A stretch of DNA of 62,833 bases, the filler included. It is 4 parts of 4 records of this genome, joined end to end, with 100 filler letters (N's around TTAATTAATTAA, not from the genome) between each part and the next. Parts side by side here need not be neighbours in the genome. Positions count along the whole stretch, not along the records: positions 1 to 22,878 come from DRR723986_3137; 3 more parts are not named here. The stretch is one strand, 5' to 3'. Under the pieces are notes generated by a model. That model saw only the letters and a list, made by a program, of their open reading frames with translations, was not told the origin of the DNA and did no database searches. Shown piece after piece: positions 3,836 to 22,978 of the stretch. Numbering within the stretch: the stretch's first letter is position 1; each line of letters starts with the position of its first letter. The translations under genes were made by a program, and so were the position numbers.

Positions 3836-5281
3836 GTGAACCGCATGTCCAACAACGTAGAGCCCAAGATCAGATCGCGGAAAGGCTGTTTGTTCTATTT
3901 CTTGGTTGGGGCTGTCGGCCTCCCACTCTTGATCGTGGTTCTGCTGGTCAGCTTCCTCGGCATGCGGGATATCTCCGCGAAGAACAAACTGAACGAACGC
4001 GTCGAGGCGCTCGAGGCCGCTGGGAAACCATACGACTCACCGTCGATGGCAAAGTACTACGAATCGCTCACCTCGGCCGAGAACACACAGGCCTGGATTG
4101 GCATTCTCGAGGAACTCGACAGTCAAGAGTTTCAGTCGAGCATTCAAGGCGTTCCGATTCTTTCGGCCGATGGTTCCGTACCGCTAGATGCAAACACAAC
4201 TTGGCCAGAAGAGGAAGTTACGCGAAAATTTCTCGAACAGTGGCAACCACTTCACAGTCGTGTCATGCAGGCATCGATTAACGCCGGGCCGGTTCGTTTT
4301 CCGATAGAGTGGAACTCGATTGAGACACTCCTGCCTCAAGCACAGAATATGCGCACCGCAGCTCGCCTGCTTCAGCTACGAGGACAGGTAGCCATTCGAG
4401 ATCGCGATTCCGCCGCGCTTCGACGAAGCCTGGATGCACTTCTCGGTTGCAGCAACGTGCTCAGCGGTGATCCAATTCTGGTTTCGCAACTAGTTTCCGT
4501 CGCCATTGACTCAATAGGTGTTGGCCTTCTCCAACAGGGACTTGAGCAGGGACTGCTTCGCGAGCGGGATCTCGAATACCTGTTGCCAAAGTTTCTTGAA
4601 CGAGCGAGCATCGGCCCACAATGGCAATACAGCATGCACGGCGAACGCGGAATGATGATGCCAATTTTTCGCGGCGGCCCCGAGAGCCAAGATATCCGCG
4701 GAGCAATGGGTCCAGGCCTGCCACCAATCGTAGGCTCACTACCCTTCCGCTCGCGCGACGCTAACACCTACATGGACATTATTGACAAGGCGGTTGCATT
4801 CGAGACTAGCGACATCGACAGGTTTGCAGAAAACCTTGCCGTTCTGGAAGCGGAGATGGAAGAACAGTTCGGGTCAAGAAATGTCTTCGCAATGTTTGAC
4901 TCGGCGCTCACCGGGATGTTAACGCCAGCGCTGAGTGCCGCTGGCAATGCGTTTATTCGTCAAGCTGCTATGCACCGAATTGCATCCCTGGCGATCGCAA
5001 CCAGGCTTTACTACCTGCAGAATGGTCGCTTTCCCGAGGCGCTGGCCGACCTGCAAGCTTACGGGCTGGACCCTGCGGTACTTCGTCCTCGTGGTGGCAA
5101 GCCCTTTGGATACCAGACAGACGAAGCTGGAGCCTTACTTTGGGGATTCAGTCGCTTTAGCGACGACACCTCTGTGCCAGCCGAACCTCCTGCATTCGAC
5201 GCAGAACAAGCCTACGCTGAACAAACAAAGATGTGGGTCTGGCGCGTCGCCCCTAGCCAAGCTGGCGACGAAGAAGACTAG
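3836..5281 (+). CDS. Membrane-anchored hypothetical protein (Planctomycete-type)
   Basis: 481-aa ORF with one N-terminal TM; LLPQAQNMRTAARLL, PILVSQLV and C-terminal LAIATRLYYLQNGRFPEALADL segments. Confidence 0.75.
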   Translation: MNRMSNNVEPKIRSRKGCLFYFLVGAVGLPLLIVVLLVSFLGMRDISAKNKLNERVEALEAAGKPYDSPSMAKYYESLTSAENTQAWIGILEELDSQEFQSSIQGVPILSADGSVPLDANTTWPEEEVTRKFLEQWQPLHSRVMQASINAGPVRFPIEWNSIETLLPQAQNMRTAARLLQLRGQVAIRDRDSAALRRSLDALLGCSNVLSGDPILVSQLVSVAIDSIGVGLLQQGLEQGLLRERDLEYLLPKFLERASIGPQWQYSMHGERGMMMPIFRGGPESQDIRGAMGPGLPPIVGSLPFRSRDANTYMDIIDKAVAFETSDIDRFAENLAVLEAEMEEQFGSRNVFAMFDSALTGMLTPALSAAGNAFIRQAAMHRIASLAIATRLYYLQNGRFPEALADLQAYGLDPAVLRPRGGKPFGYQTDEAGALLWGFSRFSDDTSVPAEPPAFDAEQAYAEQTKMWVWRVAPSQAGDEED

Positions 5282-5305
5282 GCTGCCGGAGCAACTGCTA
5301 ACCGA

Positions 5306-6073
5306 TTAGCCATCAAAGGTCCCAAGCAACGCGTCGTCGTCGACCAAATCAAGTGGCTGATAACCGGGGTGGCGAGACTCTTTGTAAGGGTCGTTCATCT
5401 TTGTGTTGTAGCAACAAATCAACGACCATCGCGGGTTCGGGCTAGTGTTCTGGTCGCTTCTGTGGAGCAAGTTGCCATGGAAGAACAGCGCGTCGCCAGG
5501 CTGCATTTCAACGTGTACGACCTCCATGCGTTCTAAAACGGCTTCGACCCGTTCGGGATCGGCGCCCGTTTGCCCGCCGACTTTCATATGGTTCATTCTT
5601 CCCAGATGATGCGACTGCGGAATGACTTGCAAGCAGCCGTTTTCCCGCGTGCATGAATCGACGGCAATGAAACAACTGCCCATCGTCGGATAGAGACACC
5701 CATAGTCGTACCAATATCCGTAATCCTGATGCCACTCCCATGCACCGCCGATGATTGGCTGCTTCAACATCATCTTGTGGTGATAGTGATAGACTTCGTC
5801 GCCCAGAAACAACGCCATGTTTTCCGCAACTCGGCGCAGGCGGACAATTCGAGAATACGGCTCGTCGCCAAGATCATTACTCAACGAAAGTGTCGTCGTT
5901 CCGCCAGCAGCGTCTGCGCGACTCGTCGCGTTGCTCGCCACTGCAGGATCACTCCGCGCATAATCCCGCAACTTGCCGATTTCGTCGCCCGTCAACAAGC
6001 TCTCCACTACGGCGAATCCTACATCCCTAAACTGCTCAACATCAGACTCGCTTGCTCGATAAAAACTCATCAT
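5306..6073 (-). CDS. Phytanoyl-CoA dioxygenase (PhyH) family Fe(II)/2OG dioxygenase, proline-4-hydroxylase-like
   Basis: HxD...H facial triad (WHQDYGYW, LLHRS), ENGCLQVIPQSH, PGDALFFH, PRWSL. Confidence 0.88.
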   Translation of the reverse strand: MMSFYRASESDVEQFRDVGFAVVESLLTGDEIGKLRDYARSDPAVASNATSRADAAGGTTTLSLSNDLGDEPYSRIVRLRRVAENMALFLGDEVYHYHHKMMLKQPIIGGAWEWHQDYGYWYDYGCLYPTMGSCFIAVDSCTRENGCLQVIPQSHHLGRMNHMKVGGQTGADPERVEAVLERMEVVHVEMQPGDALFFHGNLLHRSDQNTSPNPRWSLICCYNTKMNDPYKESRHPGYQPLDLVDDDALLGTFDG

Positions 6074-6441
6074 CAGATCCTTGCATCGGGGTCCGCGGTC
6101 AGGTCACCAGTGGCGGCATCACCCGTGTTCACCGTACCCTCTCGCTCAAAAATCATTACATGGCACTCTTGCTCGGCGACCGGCCGATGCTCCACACCGC
6201 GCGGCACAACCAACATGTCTCCTTTGCGTAGATCAACCTGACCGTCGCGGAATTCAATGCACATCTCACCCTCAATCACGATGAATGTTTCATCAGTATC
6301 GGCGTGACTATGCCACACAAACTCGCCGAGCAGCTTGGCCAGTCGAAACTGAAACCCTTCTGTTTCCGCCACAATTCGCGGGGACCAATGCTCTTGGATC
6401 AGTTCCAGTTTTTCAGGGATCGACACTTTCTCTGGCGGCAT
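6073..6441 (-). CDS. Cupin domain protein
   Basis: [35 protein letters not shown]; overlaps both neighbours. Confidence 0.9.
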
Positions 6442-7144
6442 CTTCTAGACTCTCTCCCATTTGGCTTTGCAAGACTTCATTTCCTACCAATAGCGCAGCC
6501 AGCAAGATGCACGTCAACTGGTAGGCCGTCAATCCGAGCAGCACGACCGGTTCGGGCCGAATCCACTCGGTCATAAATCGGTAAACCAGGTAGCTCAACA
6601 AGTAAAACGTTAGACGCCGACCAACCAGTGCGTGCCGCCGCTCCATGACGACCAGGATTCCGGCGAAGGTCGCATGAAACAGGAATTCATAAACCTGTGT
6701 CGGGTGGCGAAGACTGTTGTCGATGAGCGGAAATCGCACCGCCCAAGGGACGTGGGTCACCGTTCCATAGCAACAACCTGCAACAAAGCAGCCCAATCGC
6801 CCGGTTGCGACCGCGATGGCAACGGGAACGGCGAACTGGTCGCCCGTTCTTTCGCGAATCCCACAAACCCGCTTGGCCAATTCAACTGCAACATAGCCAC
6901 CGAAAATCCCGCCCAGAATTGTCTTGCCATCAGCAAACCAAGCGAACGGAGCCGCCTCGCCTGCCTGAGTAATCCAGAACGGGACCTTGGCCCCCAACAT
7001 CGCGCCAATGAAAGCAGCAAGTCCAATGGCGGTGCGCTGAGACTCGTCAAGCGATGACTTCATCGATCGACTACGCAGTGCCCACATCGCCAGCACCAAA
7101 CCGGAAAGCATGACCAACGGATAAGCAGCACGCCACTCGTTCAC
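6413..7144 (-). CDS. Prolipoprotein diacylglyceryl transferase (Lgt)-family paralogue
   Basis: About 7 [43 protein letters not shown]. Confidence 0.85.
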
Positions 7145-7159
7145 ATCATCGCTCTCGGA

Positions 7160-8710
7160 TTACTTGCTTGGCACTTCAGACGCGCGGGAGCTCACCTGCA
7201 AACCGGCTGATAACTCGGGCAACGGCACCGTGCCATCTCGATACAGGACGTTGTATGCACAGAACGGAATAATGTGACCACTGGGAAGTACATGATGCGT
7301 ACAACACTTCATAACACGCCGAACATCGAAATTGTAAGCATCCAGGAACGATGTGATCGTCACCCGCAACACGTCTCGCGCGCCCAGTTTTTCCTCAATC
7401 GCTGAAGCAAGAAACTCCGATATCTGGGGCGACTCTTGTCCGCCAGCCCCGTCAAGGATCGGCAACGCACCTGCAGTTTCACTCTCCGTTTGCGGGGTAC
7501 AACACGAGCCGCCTCCGCAGGCTTCCCGGGCCACGATCTGCTCAGCGATACGTCGCACCTGTTCACGCGTAAAACTAATGCCATTGGCCAACAAATCGAG
7601 ATTGTCATTGGCATCCACAAACTTTGTCAGCGGCACAAACGCCTCACCGGCCCTCATCGCCAGACCGATCCAATGACAATTCGGATGAGCGCAAGGCAAC
7701 GGGAAGAAATCGTCTGCATCGAACTGATTTCGATCGTCACTTGCAATGGTGTCGATAACGTCCGGGAAAGTGATTCGATCTTCAAGTTCATCAGGCAGTG
7801 CCGAGCGACCGCTATACGTGGCCGGCTGCAGGCTCAGTCCGGTGATGTGCGGATACTGTGCTGCAAAGTGCAAAAGATCGGCTGGTGCCGAGTTGTTTAC
7901 GCCTCCCTGTAGTGTGGACACGAGAGTGACGTTCAATCCAACGTCGGCCAGATTCTCTAGAGCCTTCAACTTCTGCGGCACCAACCCCGATGCACCACGA
8001 AGTCGTTCGGTCTGAGCGTCGTCCAGGCTATCGAACTGGAAGTAAATCTCAAGCTTCTCTCGGAAGTGAGCCAACTCTCTGGCAAGCTCTACGTCCTTAG
8101 CCAGGCGAAGCCCATTAGTGTTGATCATGACATAATCGATGTCACGATCAAACGCATACTGGACCAGCTCGATTAGGTTGGGATGCAACGTTGGCTCGCC
8201 CCCAGAAAGCTGCACAACCTCTGCCCTACCCTCTGCCTCAACCAGCCGATCGATGGCGGACTTAACCTGATCGACCGACTTGTGCTTCAGACCAGGCGCA
8301 CTAGCCGCGTAGCACATCGGGCATGTCAGGTTGCACGAATCTGTTATCTCGACTACACCGATACAGGTATGCTGCTCATGCTCGCTGCATAAGCCACAAT
8401 CCATCGGACAGCCTTTGTCCACCTGAGCAAAAACTTGCTTCGGTGCTTTCGCCGGCAGTACAGTATCAAGTCGGTCGTATCGCCGCACGTCACTACATAC
8501 AAAATCTTCGCGGGTACCGTGCTTCGGGCATGTCTTGCGAAAGTACACCCGCCCCTGACGATTGATGATTTTCGCTGGTACAACGTCCATGCATTCCGGA
8601 CAAAGACTCTGTGTAAGCCCCAGGAAAGCGTAGCCGCGGAAATTGGCAGTTCGTTGATCAGGAGCGTTCATCGCATTGGGCACCGTTGGACGAAAATTGG
8701 ATCCTGTCAC
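7160..8710 (-). CDS. Radical SAM protein of the MJ0619 / tetraether synthase (Tes, GDGT-MAS) family
   Basis: N-terminal TQSLCPEC...TCPKHG, GCPMDCGLCSEH, radical SAM CNLTCPMC, SGGEPT, NTNG, PCAHPNC, FLDAYNFD..RVMKCC, IPFCAYN. Confidence 0.85.
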   Translation of the reverse strand: MTGSNFRPTVPNAMNAPDQRTANFRGYAFLGLTQSLCPECMDVVPAKIINRQGRVYFRKTCPKHGTREDFVCSDVRRYDRLDTVLPAKAPKQVFAQVDKGCPMDCGLCSEHEQHTCIGVVEITDSCNLTCPMCYAASAPGLKHKSVDQVKSAIDRLVEAEGRAEVVQLSGGEPTLHPNLIELVQYAFDRDIDYVMINTNGLRLAKDVELARELAHFREKLEIYFQFDSLDDAQTERLRGASGLVPQKLKALENLADVGLNVTLVSTLQGGVNNSAPADLLHFAAQYPHITGLSLQPATYSGRSALPDELEDRITFPDVIDTIASDDRNQFDADDFFPLPCAHPNCHWIGLAMRAGEAFVPLTKFVDANDNLDLLANGISFTREQVRRIAEQIVAREACGGGSCCTPQTESETAGALPILDGAGGQESPQISEFLASAIEEKLGARDVLRVTITSFLDAYNFDVRRVMKCCTHHVLPSGHIIPFCAYNVLYRDGTVPLPELSAGLQVSSRASEVPSK

Positions 8711-8734
8711 TGTGACTCGCTGAAGACGCCAGGA

Positions 8735-9244
8735 TCAGAATGGCAAGCGAAGCGAGAGTCTGAATAGGAACAAGTAGGTCAGTAGCCAAACAATTCCACT
8801 GAAGCCGAGAATGATTGCAAATGCGACGTCTTCTGGGCTTCCATTGCTCAGCACAATCATGCTAGTCGGCAGGCAGACGACGACAAATGCAATCCCAGAT
8901 GCGAAGCCGGCGACTAACATGAAAACCCAACTTGTGAACAACAACAGCAGCGGATTGGGCAACTGCGCATTGATGTCAGCGCTGGAAAGCCGCCGCTGTA
9001 GCAATGGGACACGAATCGCAGCAGCAACGATTGCAATCAGTCCCGGCAACGGGAATCCGAACAGGAATGTTCCAGCAACAAAGAGCAATAAGGCAGTCAC
9101 AAGTGCCGCCCAGTAGGCAGCCGTCAATGCGGTACTACCAACGGGCCGCTGAACAACCGATGCATCTGTGGCTGCGAACGGATTGAGCTCACCTCCGTCG
9201 TCGCGCGGAGGCAGGGATTCGGGAATGATTGGTGGTTCGTCCAT
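8735..9244 (-). CDS. Small multi-pass (about 4 TM) membrane protein
   Basis: 169-aa ORF with Pro/acidic N-tail (NPFAA), hydrophobic helices and a single Cys in GIAFVVVCLP; ends 24 nt before the radical SAM start. Confidence 0.75.
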   Translation of the reverse strand: MDEPPIIPESLPPRDDGGELNPFAATDASVVQRPVGSTALTAAYWAALVTALLLFVAGTFLFGFPLPGLIAIVAAAIRVPLLQRRLSSADINAQLPNPLLLLFTSWVFMLVAGFASGIAFVVVCLPTSMIVLSNGSPEDVAFAIILGFSGIVWLLTYLFLFRLSLRLPF

Positions 9245-9350
9245 GACGTCGTCATTTTACGCTGGAGCTGGATCTGCTATGCGTCGCGCGAAGCGCATGG
9301 TGGCTAAACACAGGGAACCTCAAAACAACACGCTACACCACAACAACCCA

Positions 9351-11036
9351 CTAAGGCCTCAGTCGAATGGCCAAGTTTGTCAAATCACCTCGGCGGATGA
9401 CACCCACTAACTCACGAGTTTCGCCAGCCACTACAGGCAATAGATCGTCGCTCGTCTGCCGAAACGCACTCACCGCCTCGCTGAGCGGTTGTTCCACGTC
9501 CAGTACACAGGCTAGTGGACTTGCCAAGTCCTCAGCGTAAACCAGCATATCGATCTCATCGTCAAAGAAGGTATCGCTCAGTTCAGTGTAGCGAATCGCG
9601 CCCGTTACGTGGTGTTCTGCATCAACGACGATATAGGTATTGTCGTGGCTATGCCTGATGAACTCGATCACTTCGTCAAAGTGAGCCGACTGCTGCAGGC
9701 CTCCCACGTTTCGGCGCACCAGGTCGCCGACTTTCATCGACTGTACATTGGTCGATTTTCCGGGACGCAGCCCCACCGCCTCGCGACCACGCATCCACAT
9801 CTTCCCGGCCCAACTGGTTGGGGTTTCCGTCGTGTGCGAGATGGCTTCGGCAAGTGGGATTTCTCCGGCGCGCAAGACACTCCACCGTAGGGCTACCGGT
9901 CCGACGATTTCGAAGAAGACGACCGAGCCGAGTATGATTGCTTGCAGTTGTAGACCGACTTCGGGCCAGCGGGTTGCGGCCAAGGAGGATAGCGCAATGG
10001 CCGCGCCTGCTTGAGCGAGCATGCAGCTACCCAAGTAACGCCGAACACCTGTCACTTCTCCCATCAAGCGGCTGGCCCACCGCACACCGAAGATCTTGCC
10101 AGCCGTCCGTGCGACAATATATCCGGCCCCCAGCAATCCGGCCGCCAAGAATGCATCCAGACGCAACTCAGCGCCATGCACGGCGAAGAACATAACAATC
10201 AACAGCCCCGCGATCTTGCCCTGCTCTGCGACCAAGTCGCTGGCAAAATCGGACGTGTTGACGACAAACATGCCGGCAATCAAGAACGCCAGCATGTAAG
10301 GCATATTCCACGACTCACACAGCCCCAGCATTAGCACGCTAACGGCAATAACCATTACGAGCCATCTGGAACGGCTCAGCAAACCACTTGCGTAGCTGAT
10401 GAACAATCCTGCAATCGCGCCAAGCAGACATGCACCGCCGAGATCGTACAGGAGCCGCCCTACTTCAACACTGACGTCCCCTTCGAAACCACCGGTGCAA
10501 ACGTGAGCAATCAAGAAGATGAATTCGAACGCTAGTATGGCAACGATATTGTTCAGCGCTACGAGTACTTCGGCCAGATCGGTCACTGGTCCTTCGGAAT
10601 TTGATTCCTTCAGTACAAGAACGGTTGTGGCAGGCGCGGTGGCTAGTGCTAAAGCCCCCAACAGCACCGCCATCGATGGACCTCCGCCCAGAAGCAGGAC
10701 GCCGCCGGTTACAAGGACAAAGGTTGCCAGCAGCTCGCCGGCACTGAGAACCAACGCCCGACGCATGATGCTTCGCAACTGAGCCAGTGGAAACTGACAG
10801 CCCAACTCAAGCAGCACCAGCGCCATGGCCAGCTTGGTGAGCGGCTCAAGATGGTGCAGCTCCTCAGCACCAATCCAATGCAACAGGCTAGGACCGACCA
10901 ACATACCCGCCAGCAAGTAGGCAGACACTTTGGGAATGCGAATAAAATCCGCAATGATCCCGGCGAGCAGCGAAGCAAGTAGGAGTAGCCCAAGCGAAAC
11001 AGCTCCGTGCAATTCGCTGGGCAGAACCTCAGGCAT
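9351..11036 (-). CDS. CPA2-family cation:proton antiporter with C-terminal CBS pair
   Basis: RIPKVSAYLLAGMLVGP, ATAPATT, QAGAAIAL, EIVGP; CBS-like tail (LPVV..GVIRRGDL). Confidence 0.88.
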   Translation of the reverse strand: MPEVLPSELHGAVSLGLLLLASLLAGIIADFIRIPKVSAYLLAGMLVGPSLLHWIGAEELHHLEPLTKLAMALVLLELGCQFPLAQLRSIMRRALVLSAGELLATFVLVTGGVLLLGGGPSMAVLLGALALATAPATTVLVLKESNSEGPVTDLAEVLVALNNIVAILAFEFIFLIAHVCTGGFEGDVSVEVGRLLYDLGGACLLGAIAGLFISYASGLLSRSRWLVMVIAVSVLMLGLCESWNMPYMLAFLIAGMFVVNTSDFASDLVAEQGKIAGLLIVMFFAVHGAELRLDAFLAAGLLGAGYIVARTAGKIFGVRWASRLMGEVTGVRRYLGSCMLAQAGAAIALSSLAATRWPEVGLQLQAIILGSVVFFEIVGPVALRWSVLRAGEIPLAEAISHTTETPTSWAGKMWMRGREAVGLRPGKSTNVQSMKVGDLVRRNVGGLQQSAHFDEVIEFIRHSHDNTYIVVDAEHHVTGAIRYTELSDTFFDDEIDMLVYAEDLASPLACVLDVEQPLSEAVSAFRQTSDDLLPVVAGETRELVGVIRRGDLTNLAIRLRP

Positions 11037-11063
11037 CCACGCCCGTCCGTGGTAAGGCAGCCA

Positions 11064-12908
11064 TTATTTTGCGTCCGCCATGCTATCAAGCTGGATAACG
11101 GAACGATTCTGTTCCTTTTCTAGGTACTCTCGACCGTACTTGACGTTCACATGATCCCACGGCAATCGCGACATCAGCTCATACGGTTCATGAACTTGTT
11201 TATCCACGTCGATACCTGAATCGGCAAGCGCCGTCCACCAACGCTTTGGATCCAACATCTCGGTCCAACCATCCATGCGTGCACCGCGCTGCCATGCCAG
11301 TTCAACAGCATCACAAGTTCGGCGATCTCCTCGGCTGAGAACGCCCTCTAGTAGACTCGTCTCGATGTTGTGACATTTCACATTCACCGAGCGAATCTTA
11401 CGCTTATCCCAAAGGTACTTATGCGCCAATTTGAAATACTCTCTCCGCTGCATGCCATTCCACTGATAGGGCGTATGTGCCTTGGGAACGAAGTTGGAGA
11501 CGCTAGCGGTAACCTTCGGATAACGCCCCTTGATTTCCTTGCCGATACCAGCGATGTGCTCTGCCATGTCGATGATTCCATCCAAATCGACCTCGCGCTC
11601 GCCGGGCAGCCCGCACATGAAGTACAGCTTGACGCTCGTATAGTTATTCTGAAACGCTACCTTACACCCCTCGTACAAGTCATCGTTCTTGATTTTCTTT
11701 CGGATTTGCTCCCGCATATCATCGCGAGCAACCTCCGGTGCAAGAGTCAACCCAGCACGACGACCATTGCCGACCAAATCGGCGATCGTCCGTAACTGTT
11801 CGTTGACTCGTAGACTTGGAACGGAAATATTGACGCCAAGTGGATTGAAGATTTCCTTCAGCCGAGTCACCAGTTCTTCAAAGTGCGGATAGTCGCTACT
11901 GGACAGCGAGAGAATGCTAATCTCGTTGAATCCGGTTTCTTTGTAGCTTTCGATCGCACCATTGATAATCGTCTCCACCGAACGAACCCGCAGTGGCCGT
12001 TTGATGACAGTGCTCTGGCAGAAACGACACTGCCATGGGCAACCGCGCATGATTTCGATGGCGATGCGATCATGCACACACTCAACGTAAGGCACGACCG
12101 GCTTGGTTGGCAGCGGAATACCATCCAAGTCCTTAATCACCGATGGCTCAATTGTCTCCGGAACATCGCTGCGCAAACGATTCAGCGCAACAAACCGATT
12201 ATCCTTGTACTCTGGTTGGTAGAATCGCGGCACGTAGGCAAACGGCAAACGACGAGCCAGCTCAGCAAGCGCTTCCTCGCGTTGTCGCTGCCCTGCTTCG
12301 CCCTGCAACCAGCCACCATTCTCTTTGGCAGCTTCGCGAAGCTCTCGCCACAAATCGCAAATGACCGGCAAAGCAGGCTCGCCATCTCCGGTTACGAAGC
12401 AGTCGATGAACTCAGCCATCGGCTCCGGATTCTGCGCGCAGGGCCCACCCGCCAGAATCAGCGGATCGGCCATCGTCCGCTTGTTGGCTCGAATTGGAAT
12501 CCGCCCCAGGTCAAGCATGGTGAGAACGTTGGGTGACGAGATCTCATACTGGAGCGAAAAGCCGACGACATCAAAGTCACACAGTGGCGTGAACGTTTCG
12601 AGCGAGTAGAGCGGCAACTGGTGCTGACGCAATTGCTCTTCCATGTCTGGCCAAGGCGTAAAACAACGTTCTGCAGCCCAGTCGTCACGCCGATTCATCA
12701 GCGAATACAGCACCTGCAAGCCGTGGTGGCTCATTCCGATCGTGTATGCATCCGGAAAACAAATGCAGAGACGCCCGGCAACGTCGTGTCGATTCTTGAC
12801 GACAATATTGCGTTCACCACCCACATATTGCCCTGGCATGCGTACCTTTGCCAGGACGTGACGAGTCAGAAAGTCTTTGAGCTCGGTATTGATCATGGGA
12901 CCATCCAA
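11064..12908 (-). CDS. TIGR03960-family radical SAM protein (B12-binding-like N-domain)
   Basis: PGQYVGGE, FPDAYTIGMSHHGLQVLY, GFSLQYE, AGGPCAQNPEP, EIMRGCPWQCRFCQ, KLYFMCGLP, FVPKAHTPYQW, LEGVLSRGDRR, LPWDHV. Confidence 0.9.
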   Translation of the reverse strand: MDGPMINTELKDFLTRHVLAKVRMPGQYVGGERNIVVKNRHDVAGRLCICFPDAYTIGMSHHGLQVLYSLMNRRDDWAAERCFTPWPDMEEQLRQHQLPLYSLETFTPLCDFDVVGFSLQYEISSPNVLTMLDLGRIPIRANKRTMADPLILAGGPCAQNPEPMAEFIDCFVTGDGEPALPVICDLWRELREAAKENGGWLQGEAGQRQREEALAELARRLPFAYVPRFYQPEYKDNRFVALNRLRSDVPETIEPSVIKDLDGIPLPTKPVVPYVECVHDRIAIEIMRGCPWQCRFCQSTVIKRPLRVRSVETIINGAIESYKETGFNEISILSLSSSDYPHFEELVTRLKEIFNPLGVNISVPSLRVNEQLRTIADLVGNGRRAGLTLAPEVARDDMREQIRKKIKNDDLYEGCKVAFQNNYTSVKLYFMCGLPGEREVDLDGIIDMAEHIAGIGKEIKGRYPKVTASVSNFVPKAHTPYQWNGMQRREYFKLAHKYLWDKRKIRSVNVKCHNIETSLLEGVLSRGDRRTCDAVELAWQRGARMDGWTEMLDPKRWWTALADSGIDVDKQVHEPYELMSRLPWDHVNVKYGREYLEKEQNRSVIQLDSMADAK

Positions 12909-13059
12909 ATAGTAGGCGAACCAACCACCTATCAGTTCATCGAACGAATGAGCCCGCCATTTTAACAGGACCAGCCAGAAAGCCCTACATGAGCGAAGAA
13001 TTTGCTACTTCGCCAAATCTGACAGCCGCCAGGAAGAATCGCCAAGAACGATATTGATT

Positions 13060-22878: not shown

Positions 22879-22978
22879 NNNNNNNNNNNNNNNNNNNNNN
22901 NNNNNNNNNNNNNNNNNNNNNNTTAATTAATTAANNNNNNNNNNNNNNNNNNNNNNNNNNNNNNNNNNNNNNNNNNNN
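22879..22978. other. Artificial contig linker
   Basis: N44-TTAATTAATTAA-N44, with stops in all six frames. Confidence 0.99.

Follow-up and report, generated by a model that had tools for sequence, protein, structure and literature searches.

Three adjacent genes in the 62,833-nt stretch of DNA analysed here (the window, whose numbering is used throughout) form a real, strongly conserved and dedicated membrane module assembled from known enzyme families. All three are on the minus strand within contig A (1-22878). The first encodes a small membrane protein of 169 aa (ORF, open reading frame, at 9244..8735) with about four hydrophobic segments, a candidate acceptor or subunit. The second encodes a 516-aa enzyme of the radical S-adenosylmethionine (SAM) type (8710..7160), placed within the Tes superfamily in what we call the Lgt-linked clade, and the third an Lgt-family paralogue of 243 aa (7144..6413). 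They are separated by 24 nt (8711-8734) and 15 nt (7145-7159), so that the ORFs bear out the arrangement and spacing described in an earlier note on this DNA, which had suggested a novel system for protein lipidation or lipid cross-linking; while that observation is confirmed, the interpretation placed on it is supported in part. Since the module combines a retained transferase site, a Cys-bearing partner and a physically coupled Tes-like enzyme, we tentatively propose that the small protein may undergo dedicated lipidation accompanied by radical remodelling of the lipid, a proposal to which we give somewhat less than an even chance.

The association between the two enzyme genes was examined in 251 Pirellulales genomes. 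The radical SAM enzyme was found in 82 of these and the Lgt paralogue in 78, with 77 genomes carrying both. The two genes are less than 1 kb apart on the same contig in 66 of the 77 and on separate contigs in the other 11; among the 66, the paralogue is downstream on the same strand in 64 and the remaining two are natural fusions. All five genomes with the enzyme only have a form of 38-39% identity; one (L103) has directly downstream an Lgt-like gene that is more diverged, and in another the contig ends. The single genome with the paralogue only has this gene at a contig edge. In the 80 loci closest to the window enzyme, whose titles are all of Planctomycetota type or unclassified, tblastn located the Lgt-like gene downstream of the enzyme gene in 39, and two complete genomes in which the genes are not adjacent have the Lgt-like gene elsewhere. 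In the fusions the Lgt-like domain precedes the Tes-like domain (690-aa ORF in L101, the L100 frame, P0011 and P0052), and the LGT, Zn_ribbon_HMPTM and Radical_SAM domains were detected within one protein in L100, P0011 and P0052. This order fits the topology of Lgt, since its C-terminus is cytoplasmic.

The pairing extends well beyond the Pirellulales. Six Rhizobiales loci, selected among nine genomes with an enzyme of 36-41% identity, have the Lgt-like gene directly upstream, and 80 close relatives of one such locus are nearly all from Bradyrhizobium. A wider set of 80 further loci with 4-kb flanks, retrieved by searching with aligned sequences from the clade's deeper branches, comprised Bacteroidota, Bacillota, Pseudomonadota, Planctomycetota, Acidobacteriota, Gemmatimonadota, Verrucomicrobiota, Chloroflexota and metagenome-assembled genomes labelled archaeal. 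An Lgt-family gene was present in the flanks of 67 of these; of the 13 loci without one, 10 are cut on the relevant side and three have full flanks. When the ORFs of 87 loci were clustered, the enzyme and Lgt-like families alone were common across phyla. No Lgt-like neighbour was found at L108, L109 or L112, which encode true TrsS proteins or other Tes-family paralogues. The pairing is thus strongly conserved, sometimes to the point of gene fusion, and far beyond a chance arrangement; the neighbourhood check proposed in the earlier note speaks in favour of that note's reading.

Other genes lie beside the pair in some lineages. In an anaerobe subgroup, the two enzyme genes are separated by genes for a methyltransferase of the ICMT family (49.4 bits) and for a DUF4395 protein; the substrates of ICMT are lipidated cysteines. 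Four Pirellulales loci (L031, L035, L040 and L050) have a gene for a UbiA-family prenyltransferase (39.4 bits) adjoining the Tes-like gene in divergent orientation, in the place occupied by the Lgt-like gene in the window. A gene for a Crp-type helix-turn-helix protein is found directly upstream of the Lgt-like gene in the Bradyrhizobium-type locus L106 (8149-8970), where expression may be regulated, perhaps by oxygen.

The 516-aa enzyme matched Pfam Radical_SAM (81.4 bits) and Zn_ribbon_HMPTM (67 bits), a zinc-ribbon domain named after MJ0619. Its best NCBIfam scores were 340.3 bits to TrsS and 300.5 bits to Tes, against 56-59 bits for the next models (MoaA, 56). Since the curated cut-offs are 490 bits for TrsS (NF045646) and 450 bits for Tes (NF045702), the enzyme is, as judged by these models, neither TrsS nor Tes. 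In a sequence search of the PDB, GDGT-MAS (7TOL) was the top match with an E-value of 3.1e-69, followed by SkfB at 1.7e-8. An AlphaFold2 model of the enzyme had a mean predicted local distance difference test score (pLDDT) of 86.8 and aligned to 7TOL and 7TOM with template modelling (TM) scores of 0.74-0.75 over 511-514 columns (7TOL, 0.75 over 514), while the remaining PDB fold matches covered the core only, with TM scores of 0.34 or less. In the model the four-domain fold is present, comprising a domain resembling rubredoxin, an N-terminal cluster domain, the radical SAM core and a C-terminal cluster domain. By sequence and predicted fold, the enzyme is placed in the Tes superfamily and not with MoaA or the SPASM maturases. 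The earlier note had described it as Tes-like with the layout of Tes/GDGT-MAS, and this holds for superfamily and fold; it does not hold for Tes proper, from which the enzyme is separated by its score below the cut-off, its separate clade and an additional conserved Cys triad (see below).

Two trees were built, one with FastTree from 146 rows (the window protein, 120 representatives and 25 proteins of known context) and one with the quick mode of IQ-TREE from 57 chosen rows. In both trees the window enzyme belonged to the Lgt-linked clade, with a support of 99 (FastTree) and an SH-like approximate likelihood ratio test value (SH-aLRT) of 98 (IQ-TREE), and all rows with an adjacent or fused Lgt-like gene fell in that single clade. 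P0055, which scores above the Tes cut-off (480.6 bits), and its relatives form a separate clade in the other half of the tree, and the proteins that pass the TrsS cut-off, P0059, P0086 and L108 (502, 533 and 584 bits; L108 583.8), form another. Outside the Lgt-linked clade, members of the Tes superfamily are fused to other partners (P0051, P0114, P0118, P0067, P0064 and P0135), including class I methyltransferases at either the N- or the C-terminus, a MobA-like nucleotidyltransferase (alone or accompanied by an HD domain), DUF5714 and an AMP-binding domain. Functionally, the superfamily is much wider than tetraether synthesis. The L112 locus (G411:C1:1935000-1949000) has two tandem Tes-family paralogues in minus-strand frames 5272-6867 and 6732-8174 with three more radical SAM frames alongside and no Lgt-like gene, and the same Pirellulales genome carries an Lgt-Tes fusion. 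In-frame TGA codons flagged in some Pirellulales matches had raised the possibility of selenocysteine in the enzyme. This was dropped after five Pirellulales matches and one Rhizobiales match were rechecked, since the two recurring stops lie upstream of the conserved start and there were none beyond those two.

Every motif named in the earlier note is present in the 516-aa translation. CPEC (C37/C40) and CPKH (C61/H64) would constitute a rubredoxin-like site of three Cys and one His, CPMDCGLC..H (C101/C105/C108/H111) an N-terminal cluster site likewise of three Cys and one His, and CNLTCPMC (C126/C130/C133) provides the CxxxCxxC motif; the C-terminal motifs are PCAHPNC (C340/C345), KCC (C469/C470) and PFCAYN (C484). 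The ligand types assigned to these metal sites follow the review PMC13459092, and here, as with all papers cited below by their PMC numbers, the statement refers to an excerpt of the source. The rubredoxin-like site, the N-terminal site and CxxxCxxC are near-universal across the superfamily, and it is the remaining cysteines that distinguish the clades. One set (set A: C345, C469 and C484) is kept in 5/5 rows of the Tes clade and 7/7 of the TrsS clade, and judging from this conservation it presumably corresponds to the C-terminal cluster site of Tes, which consists of three Cys plus Met (PMC13459092). The other (set B: C116, C340 and C470) is present without exception in the 32 rows of the Lgt-linked clade, while in the Tes-clade rows C116 and C340 are each found in 0/5 and C470 in 2/5; these residues may also serve as cluster ligands. 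Both sets are kept in the subclade of the window enzyme (the planctomycete form) and in the fusion group. Thus, as far as sequence can tell, the Lgt-linked clade has the Tes scaffold and a different auxiliary-cluster make-up.

The 243-aa protein scored 111.8 bits to PF01790 (LGT; cut-off 24.9), and its scores to TIGR00544 (62.7 bits against an equivalog cut-off of 118.9) and NF000778 (96.2 against 334) were below the respective thresholds. Its model (pLDDT 84.6) had E. coli Lgt (5AZB) as the sole PDB fold match with E < 0.001, at a TM score of 0.60. We aligned 42 paralogues and compared them, in E. coli Lgt numbering, at the residues reportedly needed in the E. coli enzyme, namely Y26, H103, R143, N146, E151, G154, Y235, R239 and E243. 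Of the 42 paralogues, 41-42 have R143, G154, H196, Y235, R239 and E243, and 31, including the window protein, have Y26. H103 is replaced by Leu or Met, and both N146 and E151 by Cys. Since four canonical Lgts of Pirellulales likewise have Cys at 146 and 151, these two substitutions are a trait of the lineage and not of the paralogue. The motif GRLGCFxxGCCYG had been considered as a paralogue-specific change of the active site and was dropped on the same grounds, as the canonical Pirellulales Lgts carry it too. The "divergent" Lgt of the earlier note therefore needs to be redescribed, since it keeps the canonical catalytic residues of its own lineage and is a paralogue rather than a degenerate copy. 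It is about 50 residues shorter than E. coli Lgt and lacks the segment after residue 165, the periplasmic head.

A higher-scoring canonical Lgt was found elsewhere in the genome in 13 of 13 pair-carrying genomes checked, which were the nearest relative (G306), four complete Pirellulales genomes, two genomes with fusions, one Bradyrhizobium, and one each of Paenibacillus, Flavobacterium, Rhodanobacter, Hymenobacter and Bacillus. By sequence, then, the Lgt-like gene of the module is classed as a paralogue and not as the single-copy housekeeping lipoprotein transferase. In a tree of 38 Lgt rows, 23 paralogues from Planctomycetota, Pseudomonadota, Bacillota, Bacteroidota and Acidobacteriota formed one clade apart from the canonical copies (SH-aLRT 96), and the module's copy grouped with paralogues of other phyla and not with the canonical Lgt of the same genome. 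In this tree, from which L219 and L267 are missing, four anaerobe-type paralogues branch without resolution at the base, and the very long branches of the canonical rows L281 and L081 may mean that their frames were wrongly extracted.

The 169-aa protein had no family match in Pfam or NCBIfam. It belongs to a family of about 41 clustered sequences from related loci, whose profile links to further small membrane proteins. In a 29-row alignment of this family the only invariant residues are N21 and P22 (of an NPF motif), S105 and C124, and the alignment of 41 sequences has the same invariant Cys. The family profile matched 50 of the 251 Pirellulales genomes, 48 of them among the 77 with the enzyme pair and two among the 174 others, which favours the inclusion of a membrane-protein gene in the module by the earlier note. 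The small-protein gene is upstream of the pair on the same strand in 41 genomes, and the small proteins are often encoded as tandem paralogous copies alongside the enzyme. The sequence suggests a two-helix hairpin followed by an Arg-rich loop and a long third transmembrane helix (TM3) that runs to F-V-V-V-C-L-P, and then an acidic loop and a fourth helix before the basic tail. According to the positive-inside rule, TM3 would run from N-in to C-out, placing C124 at its predicted outer end. Since this is the outer end of a helix with predicted N-in/C-out orientation, the placement of C124 would resemble that of the Cys of a lipobox, located where a signal peptide ends.

The same place is taken in other phyla by different small membrane proteins, whose Cys motifs are lipobox-like: LLNAACFG in Bacillota, LLVAACFG in Gammaproteobacteria, IGFGxC in Bacteroidota and xGGC in Alphaproteobacteria. 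With a crude detector of small same-strand ORFs (70-240 aa, with two or more hydrophobic segments of which one contains a Cys), Cys-bearing small membrane ORFs occurred at 0.63/kb within 700 nt of the pair and at 0.017/kb beyond 1.5 kb in the same loci, and were present in 54/83 loci near the pair versus 5/83 far from it. A complex prediction for the Lgt-like and 169-aa proteins, run without supplied alignments, scored 0.00, which is evidence neither way, and a protein atlas look-up of the 169-aa protein was uninformative (best score 0.80).

In the mechanism that we propose, for which donor lipid, acceptor, topology, product and the sequence of events are all inferred, the Lgt paralogue, with seven helices and its conserved arginines toward the outer leaflet, would take a diacylglyceryl group from a phospholipid and transfer it to C124, the single invariant Cys of the small protein. 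The Tes-like enzyme would be located at the cytoplasmic face, held to the C-terminus of the Lgt paralogue, with which it forms one polypeptide in some lineages. It would then alter the hydrocarbon tails of that lipid by means of a 5'-deoxyadenosyl radical and its auxiliary clusters, either through C-C coupling as in Tes or through C-H functionalisation of a related kind. What results would be a small protein that is covalently modified with lipid and whose anchor has been remodelled. A more specific version, in which an internal Cys is S-lipidated and the tails are coupled or cyclised to tie the protein to a macrocyclic or membrane-spanning lipid, would be a new kind of protein lipidation; we regard it as possible, though rather doubtful. 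Because each of the two enzymes has its own clade spanning several phyla, such a lipidation system would be ancient.

Several observations weigh against lipidation of the small protein coupled to remodelling of its anchor. The active site of Lgt faces the outer leaflet and the radical SAM enzyme must be cytoplasmic, which leaves the access of the lipid to both unexplained. Set A is lost in the Bacteroidota, Bacillota and proteobacterial members of the Lgt-linked clade, and with this loss in most of the clade the coupling of tails as in Tes may not be the chemistry performed. The topology of the small protein is a reading of charge and hydrophobicity rather than a computed prediction. The Cys context in the Pirellulales family is F-x-x-V/I-C-L/I-P and not a canonical lipobox, in which a small residue is expected at position -1. 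In addition, the small protein was detected in only the 48 of 77 genomes and 54 of 83 diverse loci given above; this detection is incomplete, as short and fast-evolving genes are easily missed.

The pair could instead serve a free-lipid pathway whose product is an unusual modified phospholipid, for instance a diacyl lipid that is macrocyclic, tail-coupled or membrane-spanning, with the Lgt paralogue binding or handing over the phospholipid and the small proteins acting as scaffolds, chaperones or transient thioether carriers. GDGT-MAS, the nearest solved relative, acts on free lipids, and the enzyme model has its whole four-domain fold in common with it. Production of membrane-spanning lipids is also the published hypothesis for the bacterial Tes homologues (PMC8941075, PMC11214058). 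The enzyme pair is more constant across phyla than any single small-protein family, and the Tes-type cysteines 345, 469 and 484 are kept in the subclade of the window enzyme. A pathway of this kind leaves unexplained, however, both the invariant Cys-bearing small membrane protein that accompanies the pair and the retention of the Lgt transferase residues. Furthermore, we know of no report of membrane-spanning lipids from Bacillus, Paenibacillus, Flavobacterium or Bradyrhizobium, all of which carry the pair. According to the excerpt of Sahonero-Canavesi et al. (PMC13159169), Tes homologues are absent in the diabolic-acid producers examined and present in only 3 of 14 Acidobacteria that produce iso-diabolic acid. 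Taken together, we consider a free-lipid role unlikely, but still worth serious attention.

The enzyme may alternatively modify the small protein itself, for example by forming a thioether or another cross-link, either at the invariant Cys or close to the NPF motif, in which case the Lgt paralogue would provide a dock in the membrane or act independently as a second modifier. The maturation of small peptides is a frequent role of radical SAM enzymes that have auxiliary clusters, and SkfB was the second-best PDB match. The tandem paralogous copies of the small protein beside the enzyme are in line with this, as is the exchange, in most of the clade, of the Tes-type C-terminal set for C116, C340 and C470, which suggests a changed substrate. 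Yet the fold match to peptide maturases is restricted to the core (TM 0.34, compared with 0.75 for GDGT-MAS), the Pfam and NCBIfam scans found no SPASM domain and no recognition domain for ribosomally synthesised and post-translationally modified peptides, and the predicted position of the Cys, near the outer face, is away from an enzyme in the cytoplasm. Such protein-directed chemistry is therefore improbable in our estimation. It is far less probable again that nothing special is encoded here, either because a housekeeping Lgt lies beside a radical SAM gene by chance or because the enzyme is the HMPTM pterin methylase of the planctomycete tetrahydromethanopterin (H4MPT) pathway. The former is at odds with the canonical Lgt present elsewhere in every one of the 13 related genomes checked, and the linkage, fusions and co-occurrence far exceed chance. 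A pterin methylase is brought to mind by the name "7,8-dihydro-6-hydroxymethylpterin dimethyltransferase" that some sources give to homologues, by the name HMPTM of Pfam PF23545 and by the presence of the H4MPT marker Mch in 202 of the 251 Pirellulales genomes. However, with the enzyme in 82 of the 251, at least 120 genomes have the marker without the enzyme, while no match to Mch was found in the Tes-like-positive genomes G318, G406 and G411. In addition, Bacillus, Paenibacillus and Flavobacterium, which carry the pair, are to our knowledge not users of H4MPT.

Each component of the module resembles a characterised protein and differs from it. The radical SAM enzyme is like Tes/GDGT-MAS (M. 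jannaschii MJ0619) in its fold over the whole length, its rubredoxin-like site, N-terminal site and CxxxCxxC motif and, within the subclade of the window enzyme, cysteines 345, 469 and 484. Besides its score, its clade and its C116/C340/C470 triad, it differs in being linked to an Lgt paralogue and in being bacterial, from organisms with ester-linked fatty-acid lipids. TrsS, a radical SAM (seleno)protein reportedly named by Haft and Tolstoy in 2025, was the top-scoring NCBIfam model and has the same domain order within the same superfamily, but belongs to another clade, and the two TrsS loci inspected, L108 and L109, have no Lgt-like neighbour. With E. coli Lgt (5AZB/5AZC; PF01790, TIGR00544), the 243-aa protein shares the Pfam domain, the fold and the conserved residues R143, G154, H196, Y235, R239 and E243 together with Y26, whereas it is a second copy with a sub-equivalog score, the missing head segment and Leu or Met at H103. 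The presumed acceptor also differs, as it would be an internal Cys of a polytopic mini-protein and not that of an N-terminal lipobox.

The nearest functional precedent in bacteria is the radical SAM protein Mss of Thermotoga and Thermoanaerobacter (Sahonero-Canavesi et al. 2022), for which coupling of the tails of bacterial ester lipids has been proposed (PMC13159169, PMC13274423). Mss is likened here by its description and not by sequence; it is reported where Tes homologues are absent, and the excerpts mention no link to Lgt or to a small Cys-containing protein. Bacterial Tes homologues are themselves seen as candidates for making branched tetraethers or other lipids that span the membrane (PMC8941075, PMC11214058, PMC13159169, PMC13459092), and an Lgt partner is not mentioned in the excerpts of these four papers, supplements excluded. 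A literature search, which did not reach the supplements of the Tes papers or the TrsS paper, found no paper that describes the Tes-like/Lgt-like pairing, in agreement with the earlier note, whose author knew of no characterised pathway of this kind. The module is thus a combination of known enzyme families that has no described function in the literature searched.

If dedicated lipidation with remodelling of the lipid is true, bacteria would have a second and widespread lipidation route beside Lgt-Lsp-Lnt, aimed at dedicated mini-proteins and using radical chemistry of the kind that builds archaeal tetraethers. The view taken of bacterial "Tes homologues" would then change as well. These have been counted in genomes and metagenomes as markers of producers of branched glycerol dialkyl glycerol tetraethers (branched GDGTs; PMC8941075, PMC11214058). 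A large clade tied to an Lgt paralogue, from Bacillota, Bacteroidota, Pseudomonadota and Planctomycetota, may do something other than branched-GDGT synthesis, and this bears on the assignment of sources for palaeoclimate lipid proxies. Among the carriers of the module are culturable and genetically tractable genera, namely Bradyrhizobium, Paenibacillus, Flavobacterium and Pirellula.

In the window, the 3' end of the Lgt-like gene shares 29 nt with a cupin-domain gene (6441..6073, minus; Cupin_2, 48.6 bits), which is followed by a gene for a PhyH-family 2-oxoglutarate/Fe(II) dioxygenase (6073..5306, minus; PhyH, 122.9 bits). A cupin homologue adjoins the enzyme pair in one of 80 related loci (L001), and a PhyH-family gene is near it in three (L001, L034 and L042). 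From this distribution the cupin gene is seen to be a lineage-specific neighbour outside the conserved module; the PhyH-family gene is likewise a lineage-specific neighbour and is probably co-transcribed. On the 5' side, 9351-12908 is occupied by a Na+/H+ exchanger-CBS gene and by a TIGR03960 gene for a B12-binding radical SAM protein (602.5 bits). Both are syntenic with the module in 12 related loci (within L001-L022), with amino-acid identities of 84-97% for the TIGR03960 gene and 60-91% for the exchanger-CBS gene. Since they are absent near the module in the other loci, their proximity is probably mere synteny. Promoter and terminator scans returned fewer sites than shuffled controls, and no operon boundaries were drawn from them. 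Contigs of four DNA runs aligned to 5000-13000 had the same gene order in related strains, with a single contig of 3223 nt spanning 6906-10124.

The spacer N44-TTAATTAATTAA-N44 at 22879-22978 joins contig A to contig B (22979-62833). Contig A is collinear with the Pirellulaceae genome G306 at 71-87% nucleotide identity, while contig B is 97-98% identical to G001, from the order that holds Bradyrhizobium (Rhizobiales). Since contig A is of Pirellulaceae and contig B of Rhizobiales type, the assembly mixes two organisms or represents a co-culture or a contaminated bin. Contig B runs across the end and the start of the first contig of G001.

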